Source: a virus
Taxonomy: Duplodnaviria; Heunggongvirae; Uroviricota; Caudoviricetes
IMG/VR virus record: IMGVR_UViG_2718218135_000001
Coordinates: 49,251 to 113,250 of that record
DNA length: 64,000 bases
Direction: 5' to 3' (one strand)
Below, piece after piece: positions 931 through 18,298 of the stretch; positions within the stretch are counted from its first letter, which is position 1; every line of letters starts with the position of its first letter. The notes under the pieces were generated by a model. That model was not told the DNA's origin, did no database searches, and saw only the letters and a list, made by a program, of their open reading frames with translations. Made by a program: the position numbers and the translations under genes.

Positions 931-1806
931 ATGCCATTACTGCGTGATGAAGCTGAAAAGCTGTCTAATAACGAACTTGAGCAGGGTGTGATCGAGACCA
1001 TCATCGATCGCGATGATCTGTTCGCTATTCTGCCTTTCATGAAGATTAATTCTAAGGCATACCTTTACAACCGCGAAGCTACCCTGAGCGAAGCTACCTT
1101 CATTGATGTGAACGACACCATCACTGAAGGCGCAGCAACCTTCAGCGAACACGTTGCGAAGCTACGTATCCTGGCAGGCGACGTAGACGTCGACAAATTC
1201 CTGGCGACCACTATGTCCGACACCAACAACCAGCTGGCAATCCAGGTTCGTCAGAAGGTGAAAGGTCTGGCTCGCGCATTCCGCCGCAACCTGATTCTGG
1301 GCGACTCCAGCACCAACACCAAAGCGTTCGACGGTATTCCGAAACTGATGCACGACGATCAGAAGATCGACATCGAAGGCGCTTCCATGACCTTCTCCAT
1401 GTTCGACGAACTGGTCGACGCGGTGAAAGATCTGGGTGCGGACTGCATCATGATGCGCTCCGAGCATCTGCGTGCTTATCGCGCTCTGCTGCGTACCGTT
1501 AATATCGGCCCGTCCGAAATTATGATGGAAAACTTCGGTCGACCGATGTTGTGCCACAACGGTGTACCTTTCATCGTGAACGACTTCATCCCGACTGACG
1601 CGGGCAAAGCAAGCATCTATTGTCTGCACCTGTCCGAAGAGAACGGTGTGACCGGTCTGTATGGCGGTGAAAACGCTGGTATCGTTGTTGAGAACATCGG
1701 TACTGTTCAGAACAAAGACGCAACCCGTACCCGCGTTAAGTGGTACTGCTCTCTGGCGAACAAGCACGACAAAGCTATCGCCGCGCTGACCAATGTAAAA
1801 ATTTGA
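931..1806 (+). CDS. major capsid protein (HK97-fold type)
   Basis: 291-aa ORF with RBS GGGAAATGAAAG before ATG; position after scaffold and before decoration/tail genes; followed by strong intrinsic terminator. Confidence 0.65.
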   Translation: MPLLRDEAEKLSNNELEQGVIETIIDRDDLFAILPFMKINSKAYLYNREATLSEATFIDVNDTITEGAATFSEHVAKLRILAGDVDVDKFLATTMSDTNNQLAIQVRQKVKGLARAFRRNLILGDSSTNTKAFDGIPKLMHDDQKIDIEGASMTFSMFDELVDAVKDLGADCIMMRSEHLRAYRALLRTVNIGPSEIMMENFGRPMLCHNGVPFIVNDFIPTDAGKASIYCLHLSEENGVTGLYGGENAGIVVENIGTVQNKDATRTRVKWYCSLANKHDKAIAALTNVKI

Positions 1807-1816
1807 TCAGAATACT

Positions 1817-1840
1817 AGGTAAGTAGTTATCTACTTAATA
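1817..1840. promoter_or_regulatory. conserved intergenic motif A copy (AGGTAAGTAGTTATCTACTTAATA)
   Basis: Near-palindromic TAAGTA...TACTTA element recurring in many intergenic regions of this window. Confidence 0.5.
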
Positions 1841-1841
1841 T

Positions 1842-1867
1842 GGGTGGGCTATACGCCCACCTTTTTT
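1842..1867 (+). terminator. rho-independent terminator-like hairpin after capsid gene
   Basis: GGGTGGGC-TATAC-GCCCACC stem-loop followed by TTTTTT. Confidence 0.6.
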
Positions 1868-1880
1868 GTAGGAGCGATAA

Positions 1881-2309
1881 ATGCCAGAACAAAAGATGAA
1901 AATCATGGAGGAGACGTTTGCGGATTTCACAGGGCATATGTGCCGTGCCGGATTCACCAACTCCGTCTCCAACGAGCCTCTGAGCGAGCGCCAGCAGAAC
2001 CATCTTGCGGCTTGCTTCCGGACAGTTCCGTTCACGCAGTCTGTCAGCGTGGAGTCTGTTGCTCTGACTCCTGATTCTGTCTCTGTTGAGAAGGGGAAGT
2101 CAGTCAAATTGCGAGTTGATGTGCAACCGTCAAACGCAACCAATCAAAAAGTCACCTGGACTTCTCAAAATAGCGACAAAGCGACCGTGGATCAGAACGG
2201 TAACGTAGTTGGCGTAGCCGTTGGTACGGCAACCATTGAAGTGGCTTCACATGATGGCAGTCACAAAGCGACTGCGACCGTTGAAGTGACCGCAGCACCG
2301 GCTGCGTAA
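1881..2309 (+). CDS. Big_2 (bacterial Ig-like) domain protein, putative head decoration protein
   Basis: C-terminal region VSVEKGKSVKLRVDVQPSNATNQKVTWTSQNSDKATVDQNGNVVGVAVGTATIEVASHDGSHKATATVEV matches Big_2 domain pattern; RBS GGAGCGATAA. Confidence 0.55.
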   Translation: MPEQKMKIMEETFADFTGHMCRAGFTNSVSNEPLSERQQNHLAACFRTVPFTQSVSVESVALTPDSVSVEKGKSVKLRVDVQPSNATNQKVTWTSQNSDKATVDQNGNVVGVAVGTATIEVASHDGSHKATATVEVTAAPAA

Positions 2310-2352
2310 CCAACATATGGGCAGCATAGCTGTCCATTAAGTGAGAAGAAAA

Positions 2353-2787
2353 ATGAAACCAGCAAAAATTCGTTTATTGGAGCCTCAATTTTTGGGGTAC
2401 ACGGGGATTCTCTGCGGTATCAAGTTTGTAGACGGTATCTCAGTTGCTGAACTGCCATTCGTCGATCAGCAGCGGATTTGTGCTTCCATGCGTGCGACTA
2501 CCGTTGAAGGTAAAAATGTATCTCCTTCTGCCGCGTACAGTAGCCGCAATAACTTGACTGCGGAAGACATTGTCGAGACGCCAGCCCCGGATATTGTGCC
2601 AATGAAACGTGGTGCGGCTGAAACAAAGCCCAAACCGGTACAGCGCTTTACTCGTGAAGAACTGGAGTCGATTGCGGACTGTGAAGGTATTGCGGGTCTT
2701 CGTCAGATCGGCAACCAAATTGGCGTGAAAGCCAAAGGCATCGTTGAAATGATCGAGGGTATCCTGAAAGCACAGGGCGGTGAGTAA
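2353..2787 (+). CDS. hypothetical structural protein (head-tail joining region)
   Basis: ORF in same-strand structural operon; ATG at 2353 preferred over GTG at 2341. Confidence 0.35.
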   Translation: MKPAKIRLLEPQFLGYTGILCGIKFVDGISVAELPFVDQQRICASMRATTVEGKNVSPSAAYSSRNNLTAEDIVETPAPDIVPMKRGAAETKPKPVQRFTREELESIADCEGIAGLRQIGNQIGVKAKGIVEMIEGILKAQGGE

Positions 2788-3620
2788 TGGCACAGATCGA
2801 CACGTACCGTAGCGGGGAAGCCGTTTCCCTGTCGTTTGCATTTAACGTTCTGGATATTGAGTCGGCAACGTATACCGTCAGAGATGGCGCGGGTTCGATC
2901 ATCGTTGATAACGAACCTCTCGATATTACTGAGGGGCAGATGTCCATTCCGGTTGTCGTGTCGGCCGAACACAACCTGCTTGCCGACAAAGAGCGCGATC
3001 TGCGTTACGTCCTCGTCAAAGCGGTGGCATCCGGTCTGACGCATGAAGAGCGCAAGATGTACGTTCTGCTAAATAGCTTCGAGCTGTCTATCCCAGGCCA
3101 GTCATTCGCAACGGTCGCAGACGCCCAGATGCAAGCCATCGACATGCTGAACGGCGACACTCTGTTGGCTGATGGTGACGGGCTGATGCGCAAACGTCTC
3201 ATTGAGGCCACCAGACGCGTCAAAACGCTGCCGTTTTCAATCCGCAAAGTCCTTCGTATCGATTTCGATCGGTACGACCGTCCACAAAACATGCTGAACG
3301 TATATGACGTACCGTGGGGTGCTGACGGGGCATATCGTCACGATCTGATTGATTGGGAGAAGATGACGCAGGATAAATTCGACGAATTCCCTGACTACTT
3401 CAAACAGACATTAATGCTGGCCGTGGTTAATGAAGCCTGCGAAATCGCTAACGGCAATGACGTAGCGGCAGCTCGCGAGGACGGCATCCTGTCTGAATCC
3501 ATTGGTGAAACGACAAATATGTACCGCACCGGCAAAGCGGCAAATTTACATGTGGCTCGCAGTACCTGGAGACTGCTGGTCAGCTACATCAACAACCGCA
3601 TGATTGTTCGCCGTGCGTAA
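2787..3620 (+). CDS. hypothetical structural protein
   Basis: 277-aa ORF, ATG overlaps upstream stop (TAATG); between capsid and tail genes. Confidence 0.35.
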   Translation: MAQIDTYRSGEAVSLSFAFNVLDIESATYTVRDGAGSIIVDNEPLDITEGQMSIPVVVSAEHNLLADKERDLRYVLVKAVASGLTHEERKMYVLLNSFELSIPGQSFATVADAQMQAIDMLNGDTLLADGDGLMRKRLIEATRRVKTLPFSIRKVLRIDFDRYDRPQNMLNVYDVPWGADGAYRHDLIDWEKMTQDKFDEFPDYFKQTLMLAVVNEACEIANGNDVAAAREDGILSESIGETTNMYRTGKAANLHVARSTWRLLVSYINNRMIVRRA

Positions 3621-3717
3621 CGCCAGTCGCATTATTTACTTCTGGTCGAAAGGCTCAAGACGCACAATCGCGCCTTCGCCTGGTAATGCGTGCGGATGCC
3701 AACCACAGGGAGAGTGC

Positions 3718-4062
3718 ATGAACATTTCATGGCAAGCAGAGATGGCGATTTACCGTCTGGGTTCGAAGAATGTCTACGGTGAAGCGCAATTGCAGTTCGT
3801 CAGGAAGACGAACGTCGGTGTCGTTAAGTTTGAACAAAGTAATGAGAAGTCATCGGTACGTGCGGACAGCTCCGGCAGTCGCGGAAAAGCCAATATGGAA
3901 TTGTTCGATGTCGTTCTGGTGGTCCCACTTGAGGCCGCAGTGCAACTTGATGACGTTCTTATTCTGGAGGGGCTAAAGCTGAAGGTATCCAGTGTGCATC
4001 GTCGTTGGGGGTTACGTGGACGCCCTGGTCATCTGGAAGTAGGGGCAAACATATGGGCCTGA
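3718..4062 (+). CDS. hypothetical head-tail joining protein
   Basis: RBS AGGGAGAG before ATG at 3718 (internal start of track ORF 3604..4062); stop overlaps next start (ATGGGCCTGA). Confidence 0.35.
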   Translation: MNISWQAEMAIYRLGSKNVYGEAQLQFVRKTNVGVVKFEQSNEKSSVRADSSGSRGKANMELFDVVLVVPLEAAVQLDDVLILEGLKLKVSSVHRRWGLRGRPGHLEVGANIWA

Positions 4063-4526
4063 AGTATGACTCGCATCAGTTTAAGCGTGCTGGCGACAGA
4101 CTCAATAACAGCCAGAAAGCCTTTAAGCGTTATCTCATTCGTGACATGGAGAAGCTGGCGCGTCTGGTTGAGCGTCTGGCGCGGGCAATGGCTCCGCTGG
4201 AGACTGGCTCACTCGAAAGCGCGATTTTCGCGAGAGTTGTCAAAGAGGGCTATACGGGGCTGCGTATTGAGTTATCGGTGTCTGGGGCTAAACCGCGCGA
4301 AGGGAACCCTGGTGTTGAGGTTGGCGATTATGCGGAGTACATGGAGTTGGGCAAGTATCGTCTCGGCTATCTCTCCCGCATGAAGAGCGTCACCAACCCG
4401 CCAGTTGCTGGTGTGAAGCCACGCGTTGGGCCTTTGTTCCTTGAAAGAGCGGCACAGGTCAGTGAGAAACAGTTCGCTCAGACGATAGCTGAAGCAGCAA
4501 GGAAAGCAGGTTTTACGAGAGGTTGA
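4053..4526 (+). CDS. hypothetical head-tail joining protein
   Basis: ATG at 4053 with GGGGCAAAC upstream; translationally coupled to flanking genes. Confidence 0.35.
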   Translation: MGLKYDSHQFKRAGDRLNNSQKAFKRYLIRDMEKLARLVERLARAMAPLETGSLESAIFARVVKEGYTGLRIELSVSGAKPREGNPGVEVGDYAEYMELGKYRLGYLSRMKSVTNPPVAGVKPRVGPLFLERAAQVSEKQFAQTIAEAARKAGFTRG

Positions 4527-4527
4527 T

Positions 4528-4911
4528 GTGTTTATTGAAGCATTTGCGAGCCTGATGCAGAAGGCGAAGATCGGCACACTCGGCACTGACATTTTCTGTC
4601 ACTACATGCCAGCCAATGTGAAGTCCGGCATCCTGTTGGTTACTCCCAATACGGGGATCGCCATTGACCATGAGTTAAAAGGTTTTTATCACGACTCTTT
4701 TACCGTCATCGTGCGTAATGCGACGATCACAAAGGCGGTGGCGAAAGCCAATAAGATCATGGACATGTTTCCGGTCGAGGAAACCGTGTCAGATGGCGTT
4801 TACTTCCGGTTGGTACGACCAATGTCGATGCCGATAACTTATCCAAAAAACGAAGGCTCGTTGATTGAAGCGGGCATCCCGATTGAATTTGCGGGCTATT
4901 TGTTGAATTAA
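4528..4911 (+). CDS. hypothetical tail completion/terminator-like protein
   Basis: GTG start 2 nt after upstream stop; position immediately before major tail protein gene. Confidence 0.3.
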   Translation: MFIEAFASLMQKAKIGTLGTDIFCHYMPANVKSGILLVTPNTGIAIDHELKGFYHDSFTVIVRNATITKAVAKANKIMDMFPVEETVSDGVYFRLVRPMSMPITYPKNEGSLIEAGIPIEFAGYLLN

Positions 4912-4914
4912 CAA

Positions 4915-4939
4915 AATAAGTAAATATATACTTACTATT
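4915..4939. promoter_or_regulatory. conserved intergenic motif A copy (AATAAGTAAATATATACTTACTATT)
   Basis: TAAGTA / TACTTA inverted arms; about 45 bp upstream of major tail protein start. Confidence 0.5.
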
Positions 4940-4985
4940 GGCGCCATGAAGGTGCTGATTTAACGGAAAAAGGAGTTTTCCAACA

Positions 4986-5732
4986 ATGTCCAATACCCAT
5001 GTAAAAAACATCAAACTTGGCGCCTGCAAAGTGTCGTTTGGTGGTGTTGATCTGGGTTACACCAAAGGCGGTGTTCAGGTTGAGGTTGCGACCGAAACTC
5101 TGAAAGTTACCGTAGACCAGCTAGGGCAAACCACCATCTCCGAGCTGGTACAGGGCCGTAACATCACTATCACTGCGCCGCTGGCCGAGTCTGTGTTGCA
5201 GAATATGGTCGATCTGATGCCGGGTTCTACCCTGAGTGAAGAAGATAACTCTGTGACCATCACTTCCGCACAGGGCGTCAACCTGATCGACGTAGCTAAA
5301 GAGCTGGTTCTGACCCCGCAGGATACCACCGACTACGTTCTGACCATCCCGAAAGCTGCGACCGCAGGTAACTTCACCATGACCTACCAGTCTGATGATG
5401 TTCGCGTGTTCTCGGTTCAGTTCACCGCTTACCCGGATGACGACGGTATTCTGGGGAAAATGAGCGGCCCAAAGCCGGTTAAATCCGTCTCTATCTCTCC
5501 GGATTCTCCGGAAGTTAAAGCCGGTGAGAGCGTGCAGCTGGCAGCCCAGATCACACCTGCAGATGCCGGCGACAAAACCGGTGTGTGGGAGTCCGACAAT
5601 CAGGAGAAGGCTACCGTTGATCAGACTGGTCTGGTTCGCGGAGTAGCTGAAGGTTCGGCAAATATCTCCTTCACCAGCAATAGCGGCGGCAAGAAAGCGA
5701 CCAAAGCTGTAACGGTTAATTCTGCCGAATAA
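4986..5732 (+). CDS. major tail protein with C-terminal Big_2 domain (lambda gpV-like architecture)
   Basis: RBS AAAGGAG; C-terminal VKSVSISPDSPEVKAGESVQLAAQITPADAGDKTGVWESDNQEKATVDQTGLVRGVAEGSANISF is Big_2-like; followed by G/T-like chaperones and tape measure. Confidence 0.6.
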   Translation: MSNTHVKNIKLGACKVSFGGVDLGYTKGGVQVEVATETLKVTVDQLGQTTISELVQGRNITITAPLAESVLQNMVDLMPGSTLSEEDNSVTITSAQGVNLIDVAKELVLTPQDTTDYVLTIPKAATAGNFTMTYQSDDVRVFSVQFTAYPDDDGILGKMSGPKPVKSVSISPDSPEVKAGESVQLAAQITPADAGDKTGVWESDNQEKATVDQTGLVRGVAEGSANISFTSNSGGKKATKAVTVNSAE

Positions 5733-5749
5733 TCGTGACGTGACTAAGC

Positions 5750-5775
5750 AGAGGCTCAGGAAGAGCCTCTCTTTT
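5750..5775 (+). terminator. terminator-like hairpin after major tail gene
   Basis: AGAGGCTC-AGGAA-GAGCCTCT stem-loop followed by CTTTT. Confidence 0.5.
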
Positions 5776-5791
5776 AAAAGGATTTTAACCA

Positions 5792-6109
5792 ATGACCAAA
5801 TTACTCGATCTCGACTCCATTCTACCTCCGAAGAAAAGTATCAAGTTCGGCGGTCAGGAATACCCCATCGTTGAAATGACAGTTGGTCTGTTCGTCTCCA
5901 TCAAGCAGATGGAAGGCAAAGATCTTCAGAACATGTCTCCTGTAGAGCAGGTTACTGCTTACGCCGACCTGGTTCGCAAGGTCATCCCATCCGTGCCGGA
6001 CGCTGTACTGGAAAAACTGACTGTTCCGCAGCTTCAGCAAATCTTCACCTTCGCTATGGAAGTGATTGATGAAGAGAACGAAAAAGCGGCTGGTGAAGGG
6101 GCAAAGTAA
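5792..6109 (+). CDS. tail assembly chaperone (gpG-like)
   Basis: 105-aa acidic protein between major tail and tape measure genes; RBS AAAGGA. Confidence 0.45.
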   Translation: MTKLLDLDSILPPKKSIKFGGQEYPIVEMTVGLFVSIKQMEGKDLQNMSPVEQVTAYADLVRKVIPSVPDAVLEKLTVPQLQQIFTFAMEVIDEENEKAAGEGAK

Positions 6110-6189
6110 TTTCCCGCGATGAATCCGGGGTAAAGACCGTATCGATAGATCTCGGATTCTATTTCAGTCGTGTAGTTGCTCACTACGCC

Positions 6190-6459
6190 GTGTCGCCATT
6201 AGAGCTGCTGGGCGTCCCTCTAACGATGTTCTGGATGCTCAGTCGCAACATCGACCGTCTACGTGCGGAAGAGGATGTCCGCAACCTGCAAGTCGCTCGC
6301 GCTGCCCAGGCAGATGGCGAGGGCGTGAAGGCGTTCATGGAGGGTTTGCAACTCAGGATTGGAAGACCAGTCGTAACCGATAAAGTCTACGATCCGCGCA
6401 AGGATAAGGCAGACCCTGACGCCAAAGAGCAACTGATGCAAATTTTTGGCAGAGGATGA
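6190..6459 (+). CDS. tail assembly chaperone T-like segment (possibly expressed as G-T fusion by -1 frameshift)
   Basis: Frame is -1 relative to 5792..6109 and open from 6097; ends just before tape measure start. Confidence 0.3.
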   Translation: MSPLELLGVPLTMFWMLSRNIDRLRAEEDVRNLQVARAAQADGEGVKAFMEGLQLRIGRPVVTDKVYDPRKDKADPDAKEQLMQIFGRG

Positions 6460-6466
6460 CAAGGGA

Positions 6467-9400
6467 ATGTCACAAAACGTAGAGTTTGTCCTGTCGCTGG
6501 AAGACAAGCAGTTTACAGCGTCAATCGACCGGGCGGGTAAGCTACTTACCAGATTCGGGGAGCAGGCCACAAAACCAGCTCAGAAAATTAACAATCTGGA
6601 ACGCTCGTTGGGTTCGGTCTCCCGCATCATCGGCGTTCTGGAGTCCAAGCTCGATGCCACGGCAGACAAACTACAGGATGTAGCTGCCGGCTTCGAACTT
6701 GTGTCTGATGTTTCGCGCAAGACGCGAGGCAACATTACCAGCCTCAATTCAGGTCTCAAAACCCTGATTGAGCGCGTCGACACAACCACCTCTTCCGTTA
6801 ATAAGCTCACCACATCGTTGCGCAAGGTTCAGTCTGAACTCAATGAGTTTTCCGATTGGGCAACGTTCGCTGGTAAGAGCGCCAGCCGCTTCGGTACGGA
6901 GGTAAAAGAAGCCTCTACATCTGTGAGTGGTATGAATACGCGCCTTAACACCACGACGAAGCGTCTCAGTAATTGGGGTGTCACAACGAACCAGGCTGCC
7001 GAGGGGCTGAAGAAAGTCCGCGATCAGATGGATGCGGTGATTGGCCGCCAGCAGCTGATCAGCAAGCCGGTGCGTGTGCGCACCAGCGGCTACGGTGAGG
7101 GCGGTGGTAATGGCGGTGGCGGTCGACACAGCGGTTCCTATGGCCACGGCGGGCGCGGTGCTGAAAATGGCGTGTTCTCTGGTCTGCGCGGCAATATTTT
7201 CCTGCTGGGCGAGATTGGTGATGCGGCAAGAACGGTAACTGACATCCTGTTCGGCTGGCAGAAGCCAATCGTCGAAGCTGCCTCCAAAATGGAGCGTATG
7301 TGCGTCATGTTGCGCGGGCTGAACAAGGACAAGGCCAACCCTGGCAAAGCAGCCGCAGAGGATATGCAGTACATCGTGGATATGGCGCAAAACGCCCCGT
7401 TTGCGATGCAGGCGCTGACCGATTCCTTCGTTAAATTCCGCTCGGCAGGTCTCGATCCTACTGACGGATCGCTGAAAGCATTGGTGGACTCTGTTGCACG
7501 CTTCGGCGGCGATAGTGAACTGCTAAAACGCGCAGCAGTGGCCGTCCAGCAGATGTCCGGTAAGGGCGTCGTTTCGATGGAAGAACTGCGTCAGCAATTA
7601 GGTGAAGCCGTTCCTAACGCGATGAAAGCGATGGCAGACGCTGCCGGCATTACTATGGGGGAACTGACCAAAGCAGTCTCCAGCGGTACTGTGGAAGCGA
7701 AACAGGCGTTATCGCTGATGTTCGTTGGTCTGCGTGCAGAGAACGAAAACGCCGCCAAAGACATGATGCAAACCTACACCGGTGCGCTGGCGCAACTACA
7801 AACCTCCTTTACGTTGTTCGCCGATCGTGTCGGTCAGACGGGCTATCTGGATTCTCTCTCTAAGGGAATGAAAGAACTAGCCTCCATCATGAATAGCGCA
7901 GAAGGGATTTCGTTTGCTAATTCTTTAGGTTCGGGGTTAACGACGGCAATCGATGGGTTGCGTCAGCTTGCTCAATGGTTAGCAAAGAACCAAGAGCTGG
8001 TAATTAATCTTGGTAAGGTCGTGGCCGCGATGGTTGCGTTCAAACTGATGCGAGCAGGGATCATGGGGGTAGTTGGCGCTGGGAGCCAGATGGTTAGCAC
8101 CTTTGCCACGATGGCGACCGCCATACAGACTCCATTTAACCTCGGCGCTACAGCAGTAACTCGATTCAATCGTGCGGCACGTATGGGGCTGGCTCCGATC
8201 CCCTCTCTTATTTTCGCCATCCGTGGGGCGATTACGGGGCTTAAAGGCGCTTTTGCTGGATTAACGGCGTTCATTGCAGCAAATCCAATTGGCGCTGCGT
8301 TTACCGTGGCAACCGTGGCCGTGGCCGGGTTGATCACGTATATGACCATGCTTCGCAGCGAAACGTCAAAAGTCGTTGACGAGATTAGGAAAATACCAGA
8401 GGCGATGACGGCGGCCAAACGTGCACAAATGGCGGAGTATAAAGCGCGTCTTGAGCAACAAATCACGCAAAAGGAACAAGAGTTAAAATCTGGCGAAAAG
8501 GTGGTTTATGGGCCGGGTATGGCCGGAACTGCAGTAAAGATTAATCAGGATGAACGTAAGCGTATAGAAAATGAGCTAAATGACCTTCGTGAGAAACGCG
8601 ATAAAACTACTGGGGCAATTGAACGCGGAGACACTGCTGTAGCCAAACGTCTTGCAAAAGATGCGGCAGAATCACAGATAGAGAAAATACGGGAAGAGAA
8701 TAGAGACTTTGCGGCAACATTCGCTAAAGCTCGTCAAGAGGCTCTGGAGAAGATCCAAAAAATCAATGATGACGATTCACTTTCTGATGACGAAAAGAAC
8801 AAACTATTGGCACCGTTACGTGAAACGGTAAACAAAAGCTATCTGGAGCCTGCGCAAAAACTGGTTGATTCACTTTCTTCTCGTAAGAATGCGACCGAGA
8901 AGCAAATCGCGACTCTTAATGATCAGCTTGAAAAAGCCAAAAAAGATGGCAATACCGAGCAGATCCAGAAACTGCAAGGCAGTATTCGTGGTTATCAGGA
9001 GCATTTGGAAGCCGTTGCTCAGGAGCTGACTCAGGCAGAGTTCGAGAGAGATAATGCGGCCAAAACTGGTAAGGGCGTAATGTCAAACCAGGGGACTGTT
9101 CTTGGGTTAGGTACAACTGATAAAGCTGCTCAGAAGGCGCTGGCGCAATATATGCGAAACCAGATGGATTCTGCGACTTATCAGCGTACTTTGCCTGACG
9201 GCACTCCGATGATGGACTTCGAAGGTAAGCCGATTATTGGGCCTAAACAACTCAAGACGCAGCTTAATTTGCAGAAAGCATCCAGTGCCAGCTCTCTGGA
9301 GAAAATGAGCGATGCGGAACGCGCCGCAGCCATTGCAGCGCTGACCAAAGCGCGCGAACAGGATGCCGCAGCAGCGGAAAAAGCCGGGCGACGTACAGCC

Positions 9401-11038: not shown

Positions 11039-11080
11039 CTATCGACTGCCCCGACCGGGGCAGTCTCACAAGGATGTGAG

Positions 11081-11416
11081 ATGGAAAGACAAACGTTTAA
11101 TTGGTATCCAGATTACGAATCTGAAAAAAGCGTAAAACCGAATGTAACGGTACTTAATTTTGGTGATGACTACGAGCAGCGACAGGCTCAAGGTCTTAAT
11201 CGTATTAAAGAAGAATGGTCGTTAACCTTTACCAGATCATACAACGAAATTAATGCAATCGATGACTTCCTGACTGAGCGATCAGGCGTTGAATCGTTCT
11301 ATTGGGTTAATCCAAGAGGCAAGCAGATTGTAGTTGTATGTGACAGTCATACGGTCAAGCGATATCAGGGGTACTGTGTCTTAACTGCTACATTCAGACA
11401 AGTATTTGAGGCTTAA
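11081..11416 (+). CDS. minor tail protein (gpM-like by position)
   Basis: 111-aa ORF immediately after tape measure. Confidence 0.45.
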   Translation: MERQTFNWYPDYESEKSVKPNVTVLNFGDDYEQRQAQGLNRIKEEWSLTFTRSYNEINAIDDFLTERSGVESFYWVNPRGKQIVVVCDSHTVKRYQGYCVLTATFRQVFEA

Positions 11417-11423
11417 GTATCTG

Positions 11424-11448
11424 GATAAGTAAGTACTAATTTACTATC
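11424..11448. promoter_or_regulatory. conserved intergenic motif A copy (GATAAGTAAGTACTAATTTACTATC)
   Basis: Same TAAGTAAGTA core as other copies; about 50 bp upstream of next start. Confidence 0.5.
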
Positions 11449-11498
11449 ATTGTGGCGCTGACAGGATGTTGGCGCCTTTTTATTTCAAGGAAGAAACA

Positions 11499-12200
11499 AT
11501 GGGTATTAAAGCTGATATTCAGAGCTTGTCGCCCTCCGCGCTCATTGAACTGTTCGAACTTGATATGTCGAACACCACCTCTGGAGGCAAGCTATATTTC
11601 CACGCTGGTACAAACGAGCTGATGGAGCCGGTTGTTTGGCAAGGCGTGTCCTACGAACCGTGGCCAATCAAAGCGTCAGGCTTTGATAAGACTGGTCAGG
11701 GTACTTTGCCTCGTCCAAAAATCCAGGTCTCCAACTTTGCCGGAACTGTCTCCGCTGAAGTTCAGGCAAACGACGATCTGGTAGGTTGCCGCATCATCCG
11801 CAAGATGACACTGGCGCGTTTTCTCGACGAGGCCAACTTCAAAGACGGTAATCCAACCGCAGATCCAAATCAGCACTTCCCGGATGAGATGTGGTTCATC
11901 GAACAGAAGACTCTCGAAACCCATGAGGTCGTCGAGTTTGAGCTGTCGAGTGTGTTCGATCTGATGGGCGTGCAGCTGCCGTACCGCCAGATCATCAAAA
12001 ACACCTGCCCGTGGAAATACCGCGGCCCAGAGTGCGGCTACACCGGCCCATATTTCGACAAAAACAACCAGCAAACCACCATGTCTGGCGCGGATTACTG
12101 CACGAAACGCTACGACTCATGCAACGCACGGCGCAACTACTTTGCCAATGGCGTAATCCACTTTGGCGGGTTCATTGGGGCAACGCGTTATGGGCAATAG
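11499..12200 (+). CDS. minor tail protein (gpL-like) with C-terminal Cys cluster
   Basis: ATG at 11499 with AAGGAAG RBS; C-terminal CPWKYRGPECGYTGPYFDKNNQQTTMSGADYCTKRYDSCNARRNYF cysteine motif as in lambda L-type proteins. Confidence 0.55.
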   Translation: MGIKADIQSLSPSALIELFELDMSNTTSGGKLYFHAGTNELMEPVVWQGVSYEPWPIKASGFDKTGQGTLPRPKIQVSNFAGTVSAEVQANDDLVGCRIIRKMTLARFLDEANFKDGNPTADPNQHFPDEMWFIEQKTLETHEVVEFELSSVFDLMGVQLPYRQIIKNTCPWKYRGPECGYTGPYFDKNNQQTTMSGADYCTKRYDSCNARRNYFANGVIHFGGFIGATRYGQ

Positions 12201-12987
12201 AGTATTCCCGGAGCTTGGTTCGGACGTTATGCAGGAAATCTATCTGACAGCCATTAAACGTTACCCGAACGAAGCGTGTGGCTTTCTGGTGCGTACCACT
12301 GGCGAGAAATATCGCTTCATTGAAGCCCGGAACGTGTCGGAGCACCCGGAAAACACGTTTGTTATGCACGCTGACGACATTATCACTGCGGAAGATGCGG
12401 GAGACGTGGTTGCCATCTGGCACTCCCATACTGACGAATCTGCTGATGCGTCAGACGCCGACCGCGCCGGATGTGAGGCAACGGAAGTTCCGTGGCTGAT
12501 TCTGGCTGTTCGCAAGAACATCGAGGGCGATGCGCCATTTCACTTCAGTGAAATGAATGTGATCACCCCAGACGGCTTTGAGATGCCTTATCTGGGCCGA
12601 CCCTATGTGTTCGGCGTCTTCGACTGCTGGATGCTTTGTCGCGACTATCTGAAACGAGAGTTTGGTGTCGAGCTGAACCCGAATGCGCATCTGCATATTC
12701 CGTTATGGTACACGGGTGATGATGACATTCTCGACCATAACTATCGAAATGAAGGGCTTGTGCGTCTTGCGCCAGGGACGGAGCCGCAGCGCGGCGATGT
12801 CTTCTTCATCCAGTACGGGAAAATGCCTGATCACTGCGCGGTGTATATCGGAGACGGCATGATCCTGCATCACCAAATCGACCGCCTGAGTTGTCGCGCT
12901 TATTACGGCGGCATGTACCAGAAACATACGACGCACCATCTGCGTCACAGAGACTTACTCAAGGGTGATGAAAAGTGTCTGAGTTAG
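12190..12987 (+). CDS. tail assembly protein (gpK-like; MPN/JAMM plus NlpC/P60-like motifs)
   Basis: HSHTDE (JAMM-like) then FDCWMLCRDY ... DHCAVYIGDGMILHH (Cys/His papain-like); ATG at 12190 overlapping upstream stop. Confidence 0.55.
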   Translation: MGNRVFPELGSDVMQEIYLTAIKRYPNEACGFLVRTTGEKYRFIEARNVSEHPENTFVMHADDIITAEDAGDVVAIWHSHTDESADASDADRAGCEATEVPWLILAVRKNIEGDAPFHFSEMNVITPDGFEMPYLGRPYVFGVFDCWMLCRDYLKREFGVELNPNAHLHIPLWYTGDDDILDHNYRNEGLVRLAPGTEPQRGDVFFIQYGKMPDHCAVYIGDGMILHHQIDRLSCRAYYGGMYQKHTTHHLRHRDLLKGDEKCLS

Positions 12988-13568
12988 TTCATGTGCAACT
13001 TGGCGGCCCTATGGCCAAACATTTTGGTCGTCACTGGCATTTGAAAGTTCGCAACACCAAGCAGGCTCTGGATTTGATTGAGGCTAATCGCCCCGGATTC
13101 AAAGCCTGGATGAAGCGAAATCTCAAAACCTACGACAAATACCACATCCAGATCACCAATAAACAGGGCTACAAGTGGTCTGTGGACGAGAGTGAATATC
13201 AGATGATGGGGCAGTCTGACAACATAGCCAAAATCCGCATTACCCCTGTTCCGCGAGGAAGCGGCGGTTCTGCTTTTGGGTGGTTTCAGACGGTAGTAGG
13301 AGCCGCTTTGTTGGTTGTATCGGCGGTAATGATGCCTGCTTTAGCACCTCTCGGTTTGTCACTGATGATGGGCGGTATAGCGCAAATCATATCTCCGCAA
13401 GCCACTAACGAAAGTGTAAGACAGGCAGATAACTCCGACTCGTTCTATTTCGACGGCCCTCAAAATACAGAAAACCAGGGCAACCCAGTACAACTTATCT
13501 ATGGCGAGGAAATTCTGGTTGGCTCACAGGTTGTGAGTTCTTCAATCACGATTGACCAGCTAATGTAA
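12975..13568 (+). CDS. tail assembly protein (gpI-like)
   Basis: 197-aa ORF with hydrophobic segment, between K-like and J-like genes; GTG start. Confidence 0.45.
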   Translation: MSELVHVQLGGPMAKHFGRHWHLKVRNTKQALDLIEANRPGFKAWMKRNLKTYDKYHIQITNKQGYKWSVDESEYQMMGQSDNIAKIRITPVPRGSGGSAFGWFQTVVGAALLVVSAVMMPALAPLGLSLMMGGIAQIISPQATNESVRQADNSDSFYFDGPQNTENQGNPVQLIYGEEILVGSQVVSSSITIDQLM

Positions 13569-13585
13569 ACAAGGATTTTTTGAAC

Positions 13586-16500
13586 ATGGAACAGTTCAAG
13601 AAGAAAAAGTTACCGCTGTTTATTGCCGGTGCGGGTGGTAAAAAAAGTAGCAAAAGCTCCAGCCGTACACCGGTTGAAGCCGACGATACCGTAAATTCTC
13701 GTGCAATGGCCGCTATCCTCGATCTTCTTGGGGAAGGGGTAATTGGCGGCTTAGTAAATGGCGCAAGATCTATTTTTATCGACGATCTGCCGATTGTAAA
13801 TGAAGACGGTTCCTCCAACTTCAGCGGAATCACATGGGATTTTCGCGACGGTTCACAAGACCAGACTCCAATGTCTGGCTTTGATTTCGTTGAAACGCCT
13901 AAATCCGTCAATATCCAGTTAAAAAAAACGCATTATGTAACGGTTTCAATCGATAACGATGAAGCTGATCGGGTTCGTGTCATCATGAAGTTTCCTTCTT
14001 TGCGAAGCATAGATAAAAAAACTGGTGACACGAACGGTACGACTGTTGAGTACAAGTTCCAGATAGCAAATGGCGACTCAACATTTGTAGATGTGGTCGC
14101 GGAAGGTGAAAAAAGCGTTGGCATTAAGCTAACAGCAAAGAAGACCGGCGTTTATTACCGTAGCTATGAGCTGAAGCTGCCTAAGCCTGGACGAGCATAC
14201 AAGGTTCGTGTAGTCCGTATTACCGATGATAACAGTAGCCAGTATCTCTATAACGATACATGGGTGGATTCAATCGGGGAAATTGTCGATACACCGATGA
14301 ACTATCCAAACTCTGTTTTGGTTGGATTGAAGGTAAACTCTGAGCAATTCGGCAGCACCATGCCATCTCGCTCTTATCTGGTGCGTGGCCTAAAAATTCG
14401 AGTACCTTCAAACTATAACGAGTCCAGTAACACTTACGCTGGGGTATGGGATGGCACTTTTAAGCTGTTGTCTTCTTCGAACCCCGCGTGGATTCTCTTT
14501 GATTTGCTGACCAATGCTCGATATGGCCTTGGTCAGTATGTGTCGGAATCTATGATTGACCTTGGCCAGTTGTACCAGATTGGTCGATATTGTGACGAAG
14601 AGGTCGATGATGGCTTTGGTGGCAAAGAGAAACGCTTTGCAATCAATACGCAGATCACCAGTCGACAGGACGCATACCGGCTAATTCAGGATATTGCTGG
14701 AGCATTCCGCGGCATGGTGTTTTGGGCTGGTGGGATGGTTAACATCATGCAGGATAGCCCATCAGATCCGGTAATGATGTTTACCAACTCTAACGTCAAA
14801 GATGGATTGTTTACCTATAAAGGTTCTGCGCGTAAAGATCGCCCATCCGTTGCGCTCGTAACCTACAACAACAAGGAGGACGGTTATAAGCAAAACATCG
14901 AGTACGTTGAAGATCAGGACGCAATGCGCCGTTATGGTGAGCGTAAGACAGAAGTCGTAGCATTTGGCTGTACAAGCCGAGGGCAGGCTCACCGAGTTGG
15001 TTTGTGGCTTTTGTATACCGCCAGAATGGAGTCGGATGTAATTACATTTACTGCCGGCTTAGACGCGTCATTTTTGATGCCTGGTGAAACCGTTCTGATT
15101 CAGAACAAATATCGCGCAGGCAAACGTAACTCAGGTCGAATTGTGGCGTTTACCAAAAACAGCGTCACACTCGATGCGCCTGTGTCGTTAGCCAAAGGCG
15201 GCTGCTTTATTCGAATACTGAATCAGGAAGGCAAAATCGTTGAACGCGATGCTCTTGAAACTGGCGAAAATATAACAAAAGTTACGTTTTCAAAAGCCCT
15301 GTCGTCAGCGGAAACGCCTGTTTTGAACGGTGTCTGGACAATTACAGAACCAGATCTCGAACCTATGCGCGTTCGCATCGTTAACATCGCTCAGGGGGAA
15401 ACGTCGGGTAGCTTTGACATCACCGCTGTTGAAAACAATCCGTCTAAATATGAGGCGATCGACAATGGTGCAACGCTTATCCCGCAGAATACGACGGTAT
15501 TGGACCCGACTTACTCCAAGCCGTCTAATTTGCAAATCACTGAAGGGACTTATCTCTCAAGCCCGGGCAACCTGTCAGTAAAACTGACTGCAACATGGGA
15601 AGGGAAATCTCCAGAGTATTGGATCAGTTGGCGACGTTCTGATGCAAACAATGTATCGAACTGGCAATCGACGCGTGTAACCGAAGAGCAATACGAAATC
15701 GTTAATGTCGCGGAGAATGGACGCTACGACTTCCAACTGTATGCGGTTTCATTCAACGGTAAAAAAACAGAAATTATCAGCACCGTCTACAAAGTTCAGG
15801 GGACGATGACGCCGCCGGATGCACCGACTGCACTGACGGCCGTGGGCGACTACCGCAACGTGATTCTGAATTGGGTTAACCCGGACTCAATCGACCTCGA
15901 TCACATCAACGTGTATGCATCCCGGACCAACAACCTGGACACTGCAAAACTAATTGCCGAAGCAGCCAGTACCACCTTTACGCACGCAGGTCTTGGAGAT
16001 AGCGAAACTTGGTTCTATTGGGTTCGTGCAGCAAACAAACGCGGAATGTTGAGCCAGCCGAACTCCAATTTGGGCACTGAGGCGATGACGAAAGATGTTC
16101 TGTCTTTCCTGACCGGGAAGATCACTTCTTCGGAATTGGGGCAGGAACTGCTTGAGGAAATCGACACCAAAGCCTCGCAGGAAGCCGTCGACGCAATCAA
16201 CAAGCAGATGGAAGAAAGCCTGAAAAGCCTTGATGACAAATTTACTGAGACCGATCAACGGATTGAAGAAGCCCAAAACGTTCTTAGAACGGAAGTTTCT
16301 AATACTGCCAGCAAGGTGGAAGAGGCTCTTAAGGAGGTTGAAAACTCAAATGCCGCATTAATTCAGTTGAAGGAAACTGTTTCAGAGCAGGACAAGGTCG
16401 TTGCTGGAGCGGTTGAGGCCGCGAATGCAGCACTGGACAATTCATCGGCTTTAGTTGCGGAGGAACGTGAGGCACGAGTCGAAGGCGACTTGGCGAACGC

Positions 16501-18163
16501 GAAAGAAATCGAGGCAATGAAGTCAACTGTAGATAGCAGTTTGGCCACCATTGAAGAGATGAAAAAAACCGTGGCTGAAGTCGAGCACTCCAGTGCCGAA
16601 GTGACGACAAACATTGAGGCATTGGCTAAAACAAACATCGATTTAGCTTTGCGTCAGGATGAAGACCAGCACAAACAGATGGTGAGCAATTCCAGGATCG
16701 CCACAACTCAGAAGGCTTTTGCAGATGATATGTCCGCAATGGCTACGAAAATGGAAGAGATTAGAGCTGAAATAAATGAGGATATCAGAGCTTCAATCAC
16801 TGAAGAGACTACGGCTCGTGTAGATGCGGATAATGCTATTGGAAGCAGAATCACCAAACTTGAATCAAAGATTAACGATGACATTTCTGCCGCAATTGTG
16901 AGTGAACAAGAGGCGCGAGCCAGTGCCGATGAAGCACTTTCAAAAGAAGTCCTATCGTTACAAGCCAAAGTTGAAGGCGATATTAGTGCCGCTATATCTG
17001 AAGAAAAAAACGCCCGAGCAACTGCCGACGAATCTTTGGCACAACAGATAACTACATTGAAGAGTCAAACGGGCAAGGATATTAAGGCGGCTGTAGCTGA
17101 AGAGACGAAAGCCAGAACTGATGCTGATTCCGCTTTGGCTTCTAATATCACTAATCTACAGGCTCAAACGAGCAAAGATATTCATGCTGCGATTACATCT
17201 GAAGCGACTGCGCGTACAAGCTCCGACAATGCACTAAGTGGGAGAGTTGACACCTTAAAAGCATCAGTAGATGGAAATACAGCAACAATTCAACAACAGG
17301 CCACAGCTATTGCTGATACGAACAAGAAGGTATCAACAGCCTGGACGCTGAAAATGGAAACCTCCACCAGCGGAGGCCAAAAATATGTTGCCGGCATAGC
17401 GTTGGGCATCGACACAACAGGTCTATCGCAGTTTTTGGTGCAGGCAGATCGCTTTGGTTTGGTGAACTCCGTTAATGGGAAAATTACAACGCCATTCGTT
17501 ATTGATGCCGGTGTGGCTTATATGAACGGAGCTTATATCAAGAACGGCACCATTGATAACGCCAAAATAGGCAACTTTATTCAGTCCAACGATTACTCAA
17601 GCGGGATGACGGGGTGGCATATTAATAAAAACGGGAACTCAGAGTTTAACAATGTAACTGTTAGAGGCACCGTTTACGCAACGAATGGCAAATTCACAGG
17701 AGAAATACAGGCTACCAGCGGAACATTCAGAGGCACGGTACAAGCAGATCACTTCGTAGGCGATGTCGCTAACATGTATGTGGGCAATGACTTCTCAGTT
17801 CGTTACAGCGGCACATATACAATGACATATACAGACTCTTCTTCGTCTGCATTGCCCAAAAATATTTATGTGGCAATAAATGTATATACGGGGGGCGTCG
17901 GCCCTGTTGCAGCCCAATTTACCTGCAATGGAGTGACGAAGACCGCAACCACTGGTAAGGGGGCAACATACAGAGACCCTGATCTTAATTCAACAAGATC
18001 TACAGGCGTCGGTGGCACTCTTTACGCTGCTTTTAACAATGTTACCTCAAGAACTGTTGCTGTTACGGTAAAAGTGACCAGTTCATCACAGACACATATT
18101 TATTCGCCCGTGATGCTAATCAGCCGTGGAAGTGGCGCATTTTCCATGTCGGGCATCAGTTAA
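13586..18163 (+). CDS. host specificity / central tail fibre protein (lambda gpJ-like)
   Basis: About 1525 aa; N-terminal GAGGKKSSKSSSRTPVEADDTVNSRAMAAILDLLGEGVIGG region typical of J-type proteins; internal periodic about 26-aa repeats; ATG at 13586 with AAGGA RBS. Confidence 0.7.
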   Translation: MEQFKKKKLPLFIAGAGGKKSSKSSSRTPVEADDTVNSRAMAAILDLLGEGVIGGLVNGARSIFIDDLPIVNEDGSSNFSGITWDFRDGSQDQTPMSGFDFVETPKSVNIQLKKTHYVTVSIDNDEADRVRVIMKFPSLRSIDKKTGDTNGTTVEYKFQIANGDSTFVDVVAEGEKSVGIKLTAKKTGVYYRSYELKLPKPGRAYKVRVVRITDDNSSQYLYNDTWVDSIGEIVDTPMNYPNSVLVGLKVNSEQFGSTMPSRSYLVRGLKIRVPSNYNESSNTYAGVWDGTFKLLSSSNPAWILFDLLTNARYGLGQYVSESMIDLGQLYQIGRYCDEEVDDGFGGKEKRFAINTQITSRQDAYRLIQDIAGAFRGMVFWAGGMVNIMQDSPSDPVMMFTNSNVKDGLFTYKGSARKDRPSVALVTYNNKEDGYKQNIEYVEDQDAMRRYGERKTEVVAFGCTSRGQAHRVGLWLLYTARMESDVITFTAGLDASFLMPGETVLIQNKYRAGKRNSGRIVAFTKNSVTLDAPVSLAKGGCFIRILNQEGKIVERDALETGENITKVTFSKALSSAETPVLNGVWTITEPDLEPMRVRIVNIAQGETSGSFDITAVENNPSKYEAIDNGATLIPQNTTVLDPTYSKPSNLQITEGTYLSSPGNLSVKLTATWEGKSPEYWISWRRSDANNVSNWQSTRVTEEQYEIVNVAENGRYDFQLYAVSFNGKKTEIISTVYKVQGTMTPPDAPTALTAVGDYRNVILNWVNPDSIDLDHINVYASRTNNLDTAKLIAEAASTTFTHAGLGDSETWFYWVRAANKRGMLSQPNSNLGTEAMTKDVLSFLTGKITSSELGQELLEEIDTKASQEAVDAINKQMEESLKSLDDKFTETDQRIEEAQNVLRTEVSNTASKVEEALKEVENSNAALIQLKETVSEQDKVVAGAVEAANAALDNSSALVAEEREARVEGDLANAKEIEAMKSTVDSSLATIEEMKKTVAEVEHSSAEVTTNIEALAKTNIDLALRQDEDQHKQMVSNSRIATTQKAFADDMSAMATKMEEIRAEINEDIRASITEETTARVDADNAIGSRITKLESKINDDISAAIVSEQEARASADEALSKEVLSLQAKVEGDISAAISEEKNARATADESLAQQITTLKSQTGKDIKAAVAEETKARTDADSALASNITNLQAQTSKDIHAAITSEATARTSSDNALSGRVDTLKASVDGNTATIQQQATAIADTNKKVSTAWTLKMETSTSGGQKYVAGIALGIDTTGLSQFLVQADRFGLVNSVNGKITTPFVIDAGVAYMNGAYIKNGTIDNAKIGNFIQSNDYSSGMTGWHINKNGNSEFNNVTVRGTVYATNGKFTGEIQATSGTFRGTVQADHFVGDVANMYVGNDFSVRYSGTYTMTYTDSSSSALPKNIYVAINVYTGGVGPVAAQFTCNGVTKTATTGKGATYRDPDLNSTRSTGVGGTLYAAFNNVTSRTVAVTVKVTSSSQTHIYSPVMLISRGSGAFSMSGIS

Positions 18164-18231
18164 TTGATAGGAATAATGAGCAGCAATGTATATAGCGTGT
18201 TTTCTTAGTGCAAAAGGATTTTGTATCATGG

Positions 18232-18255
18232 ATAATAAGTAAGTATATACCTATT
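18232..18255. promoter_or_regulatory. conserved intergenic motif A copy (ATAATAAGTAAGTATATACCTATT)
   Basis: About 45 bp upstream of side tail fibre start. Confidence 0.5.
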
Positions 18256-18256
18256 T

Positions 18257-18278
18257 GTGTGGGCAGGGACGCCCACAC
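18257..18278 (+). other. GC-rich hairpin in 5' leader of tail fibre gene
   Basis: GTGTGGGC-AGGGAC-GCCCACAC perfect inverted repeat, no U-tract, immediately followed by AAGGAG RBS. Confidence 0.45.
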
Positions 18279-18298
18279 TTCAAGGAGTGAAAAAGAAC

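Follow-up and report, generated by a model that had tools for sequence, protein, structure and literature searches.

The window analysed here, 64,000 nucleotides (nt) of viral DNA (positions 49,251 to 113,250 of IMG/VR record IMGVR_UViG_2718218135_000001), carries two similar GC-rich hairpins, beginning at positions 1842 and 18257, each directly downstream of a repeated element, motif A, and upstream of a ribosome-binding site. What do these hairpins do, and what is the motif in front of them? The original prediction saw one arrangement in both loci, in the manner of phage promoters whose transcripts begin with a stable stem-loop, or of processing or antitermination sites, rather than simple terminators. 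We give about an even chance to a joint explanation of another kind, in which motif A is an operator, the hairpin at 1842 is a terminator, and hairpins with GGA in the loop control translation from the gaps of the late operon.

The window derives from an SSU5-like phage-plasmid. Its bases 2-17542 match Salmonella phage SSU5, with 87% identity over 87% of the first 20 kilobases (kb), and the next-best matches are Escherichia phage Cyrano and Klebsiella phage-plasmids. The genomes compared throughout were the window, SSU5 and Klebsiella phage pJN2-26, and the scans for terminator-like sites and sigma-70 promoters ran over window positions 1-20000. Both hairpins are situated in intergenic gaps of a late structural operon on the + strand of 1-22000, which includes the following genes (names from the SSU5 annotation):

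931-1806, + strand, major capsid gene
6446-11038, + strand, tape measure gene
11081-11416, + strand, minor tail gene M
from 11499, + strand, tail gene L
13580-18163, + strand, tail gene J
from 18299, + strand, tail-fibre gene

Both hairpins were found where they had been predicted, each 3ʹ of motif A (copies TAGGTAAGTA at 1816, TAAGTAAGTA at 18236) and 5ʹ of a ribosome-binding site and a start codon, and each starting 2-8 nt past the motif. The arrangement GTGGGC-N3-8-GCCCAC occurs exactly twice in the 64 kb, against 0.01 expected, and the motif A 10-mer TANGTAAGTA has eight exact copies in the window, against 0.27 expected. The 74-77-nt contexts of the hairpins at 1842 and 18257 gave folding z-scores of -2.7 and -2.4. 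The two elements are:

1842-1867, + strand, predicted terminator with stem GGGTGGGC/GCCCACCT, loop TATAC and T6 at 1862-1867
18257-18278, + strand, GGA-loop hairpin GTGTGGGC-AGGGAC-GCCCACAC, -14.7 kcal/mol, without a T-run

The first hairpin lies 36 nt past the stop of the major capsid gene. Its arms, GGGTGGGC (1842-1849) and GCCCACC(T) (1855-1862), form a stem of the kind found in intrinsic terminators, with 8 pairs (6 of them G-C), a 5-nt loop and -14.9 kcal/mol, and are followed by TTTTTT to 1867, AGGAG (1870-1874) and ATG at 1881. In the terminator scan this hairpin and the one at 11454, described below, were the two top-listed sites. We compared 74 related loci, with capsid protein identities from 82% to 100%, and the order was fixed in all of them: capsid stop, palindrome, GGGTGGGC-loop-GCCC(A/G)CC(C), a run of T5-T9 (T6 in the window) and ribosome-binding site. 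The stem was essentially invariant and the loop variable (TATAC, TATGC, TTTGC, AAGTC, TTGC). The sole common stem variant, GCCCGCCC, yields U.G, a wobble pair, on the + strand, where the opposite strand would have C.A, thus the structure acts in the sense RNA. The hairpin with its T6 is, by prediction, an intrinsic terminator, and it would lower transcription past the gene for the capsid protein, which is needed in great abundance. A start site inside the 5ʹ arm, by which transcripts would escape the terminator (with TAATAT at 1836-1841), was considered and rejected, as the gap between palindrome and hairpin ranges from about 5 to 16 nt among the relatives.

The hairpin in front of the tail-fibre gene showed the opposite behaviour. 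Its arms (GTGTGGGC at 18257-18264 and GCCCACAC at 18271-18278) are followed 3 nt later by AAGGAG (18282-18287) and then by the ATG at 18299. No U-tract follows the stem, the tail being TTCAAGGAGT in the window and AAATCAAGGAG or CTTATCAAGGAG in most relatives, and the hairpin was not called in the terminator scan of 1-20000. Relatives were gathered with a probe for the N-terminus of the tail-fibre protein; a probe for the C-terminus of J gave three loci only. Among the 37 distinct variants obtained, the stem takes forms that include GTGTGGGC, TGGTGGGC, TGGCGGGC, AATGTGGGC, GGTGGGC, GGCGGGC and GATGGGC, as well as TGATGGGC, GACGGGC, TGTGGGCG, GGCTGG, TCAGC and ATGGTGGGC. The loop, by contrast, keeps to ANGGAY (AGGGAC, AAGGAC, AAGGATA, ATGGAT, GGGGAT, AGGAA), with GGA present in 29 of the 37 variants and across at least 12 different stems. 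In an alignment of 20 sequences, 91% of cells were paired and five of the eight pairs had changed on both sides, a level of covariation that was reached by none of 500 shuffles; in slid registers the paired fraction fell to 28-45%. The AAGGAG stands 3-8 nt past the hairpin among the variants, and a T-run is absent in most of them. Judged by these features, the hairpin at 18257 is not a terminator.

The likeness of the two stems is not conserved: when the conservation of the stem was followed in relatives, GGGTGGGC was kept after the capsid gene, whereas the tail-fibre stem drifted. The two hairpins do not belong to one class, and the view that they are something other than simple terminators holds for 18257, with its covarying stem, kept loop and missing T-run, but not for 1842, which has the canonical form of an intrinsic terminator.

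The hairpin at 18257 is not the only one in the operon with GGA in its loop. The scan that defines this set covered + strand intergenic hairpins with stems of at least 7 base pairs (bp) and at least 4 G-C pairs in the three genomes; one further hairpin, at 11063-11082, came from a looser scan. The additional window hairpins are:

5750-5770, + strand, GGA-loop hairpin AGAGGCTC-AGGAA-GAGCCTCT, after the major tail gene and 22 nt before ATG 5792, with ribosome-binding site AAAGGA
11063-11082, + strand, hairpin GTCTCAC-AAGGAT-GTGAGAT, whose loop is the ribosome-binding site of gene M (ATG 11081); identical at SSU5 15222
11454-11476, + strand, GGA-loop hairpin GGCGCTGAC-AGGAT-GTTGGCGCC, with tail TTTTTATTT to 11485, then AAGGAAG and the ATG of L at 11499

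The scan yielded 102 hairpins, 12 of them with GGA in the loop; the window contributes 5750-5770, 11454-11476 and 18257-18278, and SSU5 and pJN2-26 have an additional member 5ʹ of terS. Of the 20 late intergenic hairpins, 9 have a loop GGA, as do 3 of the 82 from other regions (Fisher P = 1e-5); counting each set of orthologous sites once gave 4/8 and 3/40 (P = 0.01). In pJN2-26 the orthologue of the 5750 hairpin is AGAGGCCC-ATGGAT-GGGCCTCT, with a compensated stem and GGA retained. The hairpin between M and L was compared in 80 related loci, with stem pairs counted outward from the loop, since the MAFFT alignment mis-registered the swapped stems. Stem positions 3-10 have all been replaced between the Escherichia/Salmonella form (GGCGCTGAC...GTTGGCGCC) and the Klebsiella form (TCAACGTCAC...GTGACGTTGA). 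The pentaloop AGGAN and its closing C-G and A-U pairs are invariant, so that ACAGGAUGU is kept, and GGA was present in 17 of 17 aligned variants. The T-run after this hairpin is present in the window (TTTTTATTT) and broken in most E. coli relatives (TACTTATTT), thus termination is not the conserved property here. GGA-loop hairpins form a class specific to late-gene leaders, on the sense strand, conserved and covarying.

A few observations on this class stand by themselves. One relative, L217 (IMGVR_UViG_2711768037_000009), has a tandem repeat, (GGTGAT)n, in place of the M/L hairpin, and the most distant lineage (L264-L269) has no such hairpin. At SSU5 79904-80024 (L003 4904-5024), past a palindrome at 79904, tandem hairpins TTCGTC-AGGAT-GACGAA and TGTTCC-AGGAT-GGAACG are followed by a GC hairpin, GCGGCTGGC-TTG-GCCAGCCGC, 5ʹ of SSU5_091; this array could be a multi-GGA leader or a small RNA that titrates CsrA. 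When the window and SSU5 75-103 kb were scanned against Rfam, the only matches were a transfer RNA, tRNA-Asn, and IS009, and the hairpins had none.

Motif A itself is a 20-bp palindrome, ATARRTAR-N4-YTAYYTAT; the aligned copies from the window and SSU5 give ATAGGTAAGT followed by ACTTACCTAT. Its central 4 nt are mostly GTAC, and in a logo of 47 sites the flanks AAAATG and CATTTT are symmetric too. With a threshold of at least 14 of 16 arm matches, we found 16 hits in the window (0.55 expected; 13 non-overlapping sites), 26 in SSU5 and 20 in pJN2-26, at sites orthologous across the three genomes. They stand 5ʹ of the portal, post-capsid, major tail, post-M, tail-fibre and lysis gene blocks and also 5ʹ of the helicase-primase operon, ssb, nrdA, thyA and the methylase gene, that is, of early and late blocks alike. 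The window copies referred to here, listed without strand, are:

1815-1834, copy CTAGGTAAGTAGTTATCTAC, 14/16 arm matches, 8 nt past the capsid gene stop, with an orthologue in 74/74 loci
4916-4935, copy with 14/16 arm matches, 5ʹ of the major tail protein gene (ATG 4986); SSU5 orthologue at 9067
11425-11444, copy with 14/16 arm matches, 3ʹ of gene M (stop 11416), kept in 80 loci
18235-18254, copy ATAAGTAAGTATATACCTAT, 15/16 arm matches, between the J stop at 18163 and the tail-fibre gene; also kept 5ʹ of tail-fibre genes in relatives
21997-22016, copy GTAGGTAAGTACATACCTAC, after the tail-fibre assembly gene and before the lysis genes, without a hairpin; SSU5 orthologue at 27474
26743-26762, copy at about +6 to +25 of a sigma-70-like promoter, GTG start at 26776
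37627-37646, copy with 16/16 arm matches, 5ʹ of the gene at 37688
41238-41257, copy at the head of a conserved non-coding stretch running to tRNA-Asn
53588-53607, copy in the divergent region 5ʹ of an SSB-like gene (53694); orthologues at SSU5 52175 and pJN2-26 99981
58362-58381, copy in the usual hairpin-then-palindrome order, with a terminator-like hairpin upstream at 58329-58348

The motif is thus symmetric, over-represented and intergenic, and its arms co-change between lineages (TAGATAA/TTATCTA, TAGGTAG/CTACCTA, TAAGTAA/TTACTTA), as would be expected of a palindromic operator. Arm mismatches in 46 sites were strand-neutral, G.T plus T.G numbering 36 and A.C plus C.A 38, which indicates selection on double-stranded DNA and not on an RNA hairpin. 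An RNA role for motif A, as a nut/boxB-like or processing site, was rejected for this lack of a G.U preference on the sense strand.

Could motif A instead be, or contain, a phage-specific promoter, in which an activator site replaces the -35 element and transcripts begin before the hairpins, which would then form stable 5ʹ stem-loops that shield late transcripts from 5ʹ-end-dependent decay? Activator-dependent promoters of this type are known from P1 (Lpa) and T4 (MotA). Such a promoter would explain why nearly all gene blocks have the motif 20-130 nt 5ʹ of the start codon, why the hairpins start 2-10 nt past it, and why its right edge, read together with the next 3 nt, is often TATCAT, TATTAT or TATTAA; TATCAT, however, is mirrored by the symmetric flanks and may belong to the palindrome. 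At early sites a conserved TGnCATAAT or TGnAAGAAT follows the palindrome by 5-7 nt at 37627, SSU5 63080 and SSU5 84178, which places the palindrome over the -35 region. At 37627 the extended -10-like element is TGaAAGAAT, 5 nt downstream, with TGtAAGAAT in SSU5 and TGtAATAAT in pJN2-26 at the same offset. Phage P1, also a phage-plasmid, has 11 late promoters, each with a 9-bp inverted repeat bound by Lpa (PMC10695390). Against a promoter stand sites of another geometry. At 26743 the palindrome lies downstream of a promoter, TTCCCA (26702-26707)-17-TATGAT (26725-26730), whose hexamers are conserved in SSU5 and pJN2-26, and at the portal, thyA and SSU5_038 sites the ribosome-binding site begins a few nt past the palindrome, so no downstream start site is possible there. 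The variable post-capsid gap also speaks against a promoter, as does the fact that a transcript spanning the whole hairpin and T-run at 1842, 11454 or nrdA would terminate.

The sigma-70 scan (16-18-bp spacing) gave no match at 1816 or 18236; its only match at the late motif A sites was TGGATA-17-TATCAT (9/12) at 11422-11450. Neither half-site quality nor mismatches had an orientation bias, and the 47-site logo held no fixed -35 or -10 partner beyond the symmetric flanks. A sigma-70 or activator promoter of fixed geometry was rejected on these grounds and on the ribosome-binding sites at the three conserved loci; the directional phage promoter of the original prediction is not supported. Motif A also lacks the features of a promoter for a single-subunit (T7-like) RNA polymerase: it is symmetric, and no phage RNA polymerase turned up among the window open reading frames scanned or in the SSU5 and pJN2-26 annotations. 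A promoter with protective stem-loops is, in our view, on the unlikely side. The palindrome lies 3ʹ of one recognisable promoter, over the -35 region of others, or tightly between a stop codon and the following ribosome-binding site. Because this geometry is variable, the motif symmetric and the copy number high, the operator of a dimeric global repressor fits better than a directional promoter, and motif A is most likely a candidate operator of a dimeric phage regulator. At some sites it may act through an activator as well. Proteins that could bind the palindrome are the FljA-like protein discussed below, the HTH_60-like SSU5_116 and two ParB_N proteins.

Some copies lie outside the gaps between gene blocks. 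An intragenic copy, TTAGATAAGGACTTACCTAC, at 46098-46117 inside a cobT-like gene (45129-47426) is conserved in position (SSU5 43661, pJN2-26 91932), and in SSU5 and pJN2-26 the portal gene holds a further copy within its 3ʹ end. From the 41238 copy, about 700 nt of non-coding sequence run to tRNA-Asn (41985-42056); SSU5 and pJN2-26 share the opening tens of nt, TTGTTTTCGTTGAGAYGCGACTGTTT, and the stretch 41238-42056 could be a non-coding RNA or the promoter and leader of tRNA-Asn. The perfect 20-mer matched 26 stretches, from viral contigs 13-111 kb long, and many of these contigs had also come up with SSU5-type capsid, M, tail-fibre and FljA probes. Its occurrence in other phage groups was considered and rejected. 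A second repeat, whose apex resembles a degenerate motif A, is the inverted repeat of about 54 bp at 26604-26657, CCTG(C/T)TTC(C/T)GTATATAAATA...TATATACGGAAGCAGG, followed by TCTTTT (as RNA, -30.5 kcal/mol, z = -7.3). Other copies are at SSU5 ~33460-33510, 78305-78355 and 103265-end and at pJN2-26 ~15270, 38535 and 74845; one copy stands just 5ʹ of terS and another 5ʹ of the helicase operon. Possible roles for this repeat are strong termination in both directions, packaging or replication, or the binding of a regulator.

The original prediction was right that the order of motif and hairpin is a recurrent one, and its two loci are both real, but the count was incomplete. A hairpin of -10 kcal/mol or lower was found within 45 nt downstream at 4 of the 13 palindrome sites of the window (1815, 4916, 11425 and 18235), all in the late operon, against 6% of random 45-mers (P = 0.006). 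SSU5 and pJN2-26 have the same four sites and one more, 5ʹ of nrdA. The hairpin at the second of these sites is:

4937-4959, + strand, hairpin ATTGGCGCC-ATGAA-GGTGCTGAT, -10.1 kcal/mol, without loop GGA or T-run

In SSU5 this hairpin has an A-U pair where the window has G.U, and its 81-nt context has a z-score of -3.5. We attribute the motif-then-hairpin order to gaps of 75-135 nt in which control sites of two kinds, one in DNA and one in RNA, are packed together.

What, then, would read the GGA loops? No phage csrA was detected with tblastn, the E. coli CsrA sequence giving only noise at E > 3, and the candidate binder is therefore the CsrA of the host; on the sequence of the loops it is the most likely one. 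Known CsrA features include CAGGA(U/A/C)G repeats in the hairpin loops of CsrB, a SELEX consensus, RUACARGGAUGU, with AC and GU paired, and an ANGGAN hexaloop (PMC7652899). At 18257, 11454 and 5750 the GGA is unpaired in the hairpin loop (AGGGAC, AGGAT and AGGAA), and the extended consensus is found as C-AGGGAC-G at 18257 and as ACAGGAUGU, with A-U and C-G closing pairs, at 11454. Within the leader of glgC, a hairpin-loop site of high affinity is bridged by CsrA to a site over the ribosome-binding site (PMC7652899). The phage leaders have a similar layout, with a second GGA in the ribosome-binding site (AAGGAG or AAGGAAG), 17 nt from the loop GGA at 18257 and 25 nt at 11454. Mercante et al. 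are said to have put the bridging range of a CsrA dimer, in 2009, at 10-63 nt.

Under the joint explanation, a dimeric phage regulator would occupy the motif A operators in the plasmid-prophage and silence the lytic blocks, and the terminator at 1842 would set the ratio of capsid to downstream genes in late transcripts. A GGA-binding protein (most likely CsrA, possibly FljA-like) would dock on the loop of the late-leader hairpins, and its second surface would bridge to the GGA of the ribosome-binding site 17-25 nt downstream. Through this bridge, as at glgC, the protein would tune or block translation initiation on the L and tail-fibre genes, and it may also protect the late messenger RNA (mRNA). 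Only tentatively do we propose that late structural genes as a group are silenced or timed post-transcriptionally through GGA-loop leaders, read by CsrA and/or an FljA-family protein, atop the operator network. It is likewise possible, rather than probable, that the leaders so controlled are those of terS, the G/T chaperone, M, L and the tail fibre.

Several observations weigh against this explanation. The stems of SELEX CsrA ligands are mostly of 4 bp or fewer (PMC7652899), whereas the phage stems have 7-10 bp, are GC-rich and reach about -14 to -15 kcal/mol at 8-10 bp. A loop GGA also mimics a ribosome-binding site, and 16S ribosomal RNA or another protein could be the reader. Three tail-fibre lineages are without a GGA loop, and in the window alone the enrichment was not significant (3/7 versus 1/15, P = 0.08). 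As for the operator, no motif A copy was found near the FljA-like gene, where it was sought as a sign of autoregulation, and a repressor leaves unexplained why the operator stands 5ʹ of the terminator at four late sites and nrdA and 3ʹ of it at 58362. There is, finally, a candidate reader in the phage itself. SSU5_121 (L003 21897-22343) is a full-length match to PF03614 (FljA) with E = 1.4e-80, and proteins of the FljA type block the translation of fliC mRNA, post-transcriptionally (PMC2652032); SSU5_121 is a candidate no less local, whether the hairpins are its target or even the palindrome.

The alternative that follows is that the GGA-loop hairpins are read by the phage FljA-family protein and not by CsrA, and that it represses late structural translation in the plasmid-prophage. 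The gene is conserved in 80 related contigs, including one with 100% identity to the window over the capsid gene and M. In Cyrano the homologue is listed as the putative lysogeny repressor, and lysogens express it (PMC9928086). A hairpin with GGA in the loop, GGGU-GGAA-ACCC, and an AGGA ribosome-binding site are present in the leader of E. coli fliC; this likeness is suggestive only, the loops fit the documented CsrA consensus in detail, and the fljA-like gene lies outside the window. We regard an FljA-family reader in place of CsrA as unlikely. As a separate observation, the FljA-family protein diverges much faster than the capsid protein, as its identity among the 80 contigs ranges from 53% to 99%.

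It is very unlikely that both hairpins are plain terminators of the upstream genes, placed next to motif A by chance. Both do lie 3ʹ of the stops of long genes and have GC-rich stems of 8 bp, 1842 and 11454 were the best terminator-like sites, and a few relatives have CTTTTC past the tail-fibre hairpin. However, 18257 has no T-run in the window or in most relatives and escaped the terminator scan, its loop is kept while its stem drifts, the opposite of the post-capsid terminator, and the recurrence of motif and hairpin at 4 of 13 sites is not accounted for. Very unlikely, too, is an antitermination module, in which a factor loaded at the palindrome DNA, as with lambda Q, would make polymerase resist the next terminator: although palindrome, -10-like hexamer and terminator follow each other after the capsid gene, after M and before nrdA, and nrdA must be expressed through a strong terminator 17 nt before its start, 9 of the 13 window palindromes have no terminator downstream, loading of the Q type requires a polymerase paused close to a promoter and these sites have no evident promoter, about 25 sites compare with one or two in known Q or N systems, and no Q- or N-like gene was identified.

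The remainder of the window adds observations unconnected with the two hairpins. The Rfam IS009 match lies on the + strand at 21707-21905 (189.6 bits, gathering score 117), inside a tail-fibre assembly gene region of lambdoid type. That region shares 95% identity with the modules for side tail fibres in lambdoid phages, thus the tail-fibre end is a recombined module. A cargo of low GC content (0.40-0.45) on the - strand of 31091-36856, a chaperone-usher fimbrial operon, is missing from SSU5:

31091-32221, - strand, fimbrial subunit or adhesin
32112-34604, - strand, PapC usher
34616-35350, - strand, PapD chaperone
36041-36856, - strand, insertion-sequence-type rve integrase adjoining the fimbrial operon

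At 55984-58323 (+ strand) a RecA-like recombinase is split by an intein with Intein_splicing and LAGLIDADG_3 domains; its SSU5 counterpart, SSU5_060, has only ~358 amino acids. Type I restriction-modification genes lie within 59006-63991 (+ strand), HsdM at 59006-61474 and HsdS at 61481-62818, followed by:

62828-63991, + strand, DUF4268 protein, 3ʹ of HsdS

SSU5-like phage-plasmids (pHCM2, pLF82/Cyrano and the Klebsiella relatives) are widespread in Enterobacteriaceae, carry resistance genes and are clinically important. Literature searches found no account of SSU5-like lysis-lysogeny or late-gene control, nor of SSU5 promoters, operators or start-site maps. Taken singly, the parts described here are of known kinds (intrinsic terminator, CsrA-type site, dispersed operator of a plasmid or prophage); the literature searched contained neither the operator sequence nor this combination of parts, placed as they are in the late operon of a phage. 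What the analysis provides is, first, the operator sequence of a so far undescribed global regulator together with a map of its sites; second, a clear distinction between terminators and GGA-loop hairpins in the late operon; and third, the hypothesis, open to direct test, that tail-gene translation is gated by host CsrA or by an FljA-like protein of the phage. If true, this would be an unusual temperate phage, one that wires the translation of its structural genes to a global RNA-binding regulator of the host and ties virion production to the Csr growth and carbon state, and the puzzling 'flagellin repressor' homologue of pHCM2 and SSU5 would gain a phage function. If false, the elements would still help to annotate phages of this group, as markers of terminators, operators and the borders between modules.

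The comparison with known systems can be made element by element. Phage T7 also has a terminator, T-phi, past its major capsid gene (gene 10). The element at 1842, with its GC-rich 8-bp stem, 5-nt loop and T6, resembles such post-capsid terminators, the genes 3ʹ of capsid being needed in lower amounts, but here a palindromic operator is wedged between the capsid stop and the predicted terminator. The GGA-loop hairpins share with CsrA sites C-AGGAU-G (within ACAGGAUGU at 11454) and C-AGGAA-G (5750), an invariant GGA, and variable stems and neighbouring loop bases; they differ in that the targets are late structural genes of a phage-plasmid and that 11454 also carries a terminator-like T-run. 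FljA represses the translation of fliC mRNA in Salmonella phase variation, and the E. coli fliC leader places a GGA-loop hairpin 5ʹ of an AGGA ribosome-binding site, as in the phage late leaders. For motif A, the P1 Lpa late promoters offer an inverted repeat 5ʹ of late blocks in a phage-plasmid, with -10-like hexamers abutting or following it at some sites; motif A, however, stands also 5ʹ of early DNA-metabolism genes, and its distance to -10-like hexamers and ribosome-binding sites is not fixed. The operators of P1 C1 and of RK2 KorA/KorB are, like motif A, dispersed in many copies at the heads of gene blocks, in variable position relative to promoters, although C1 operators are asymmetric 17-mers that are not found inside the late structural operon, and KorB operators are 13-bp palindromes of unrelated sequence. 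With about 13-16 copies in 64 kb and 20-26 per genome, in a phage-plasmid whose lytic genes, about 60 kb of them, have to be kept silent, the behaviour of motif A would fit a global repressor that silences the plasmid-prophage, by analogy with P1 C1 or RK2 KorA/KorB.

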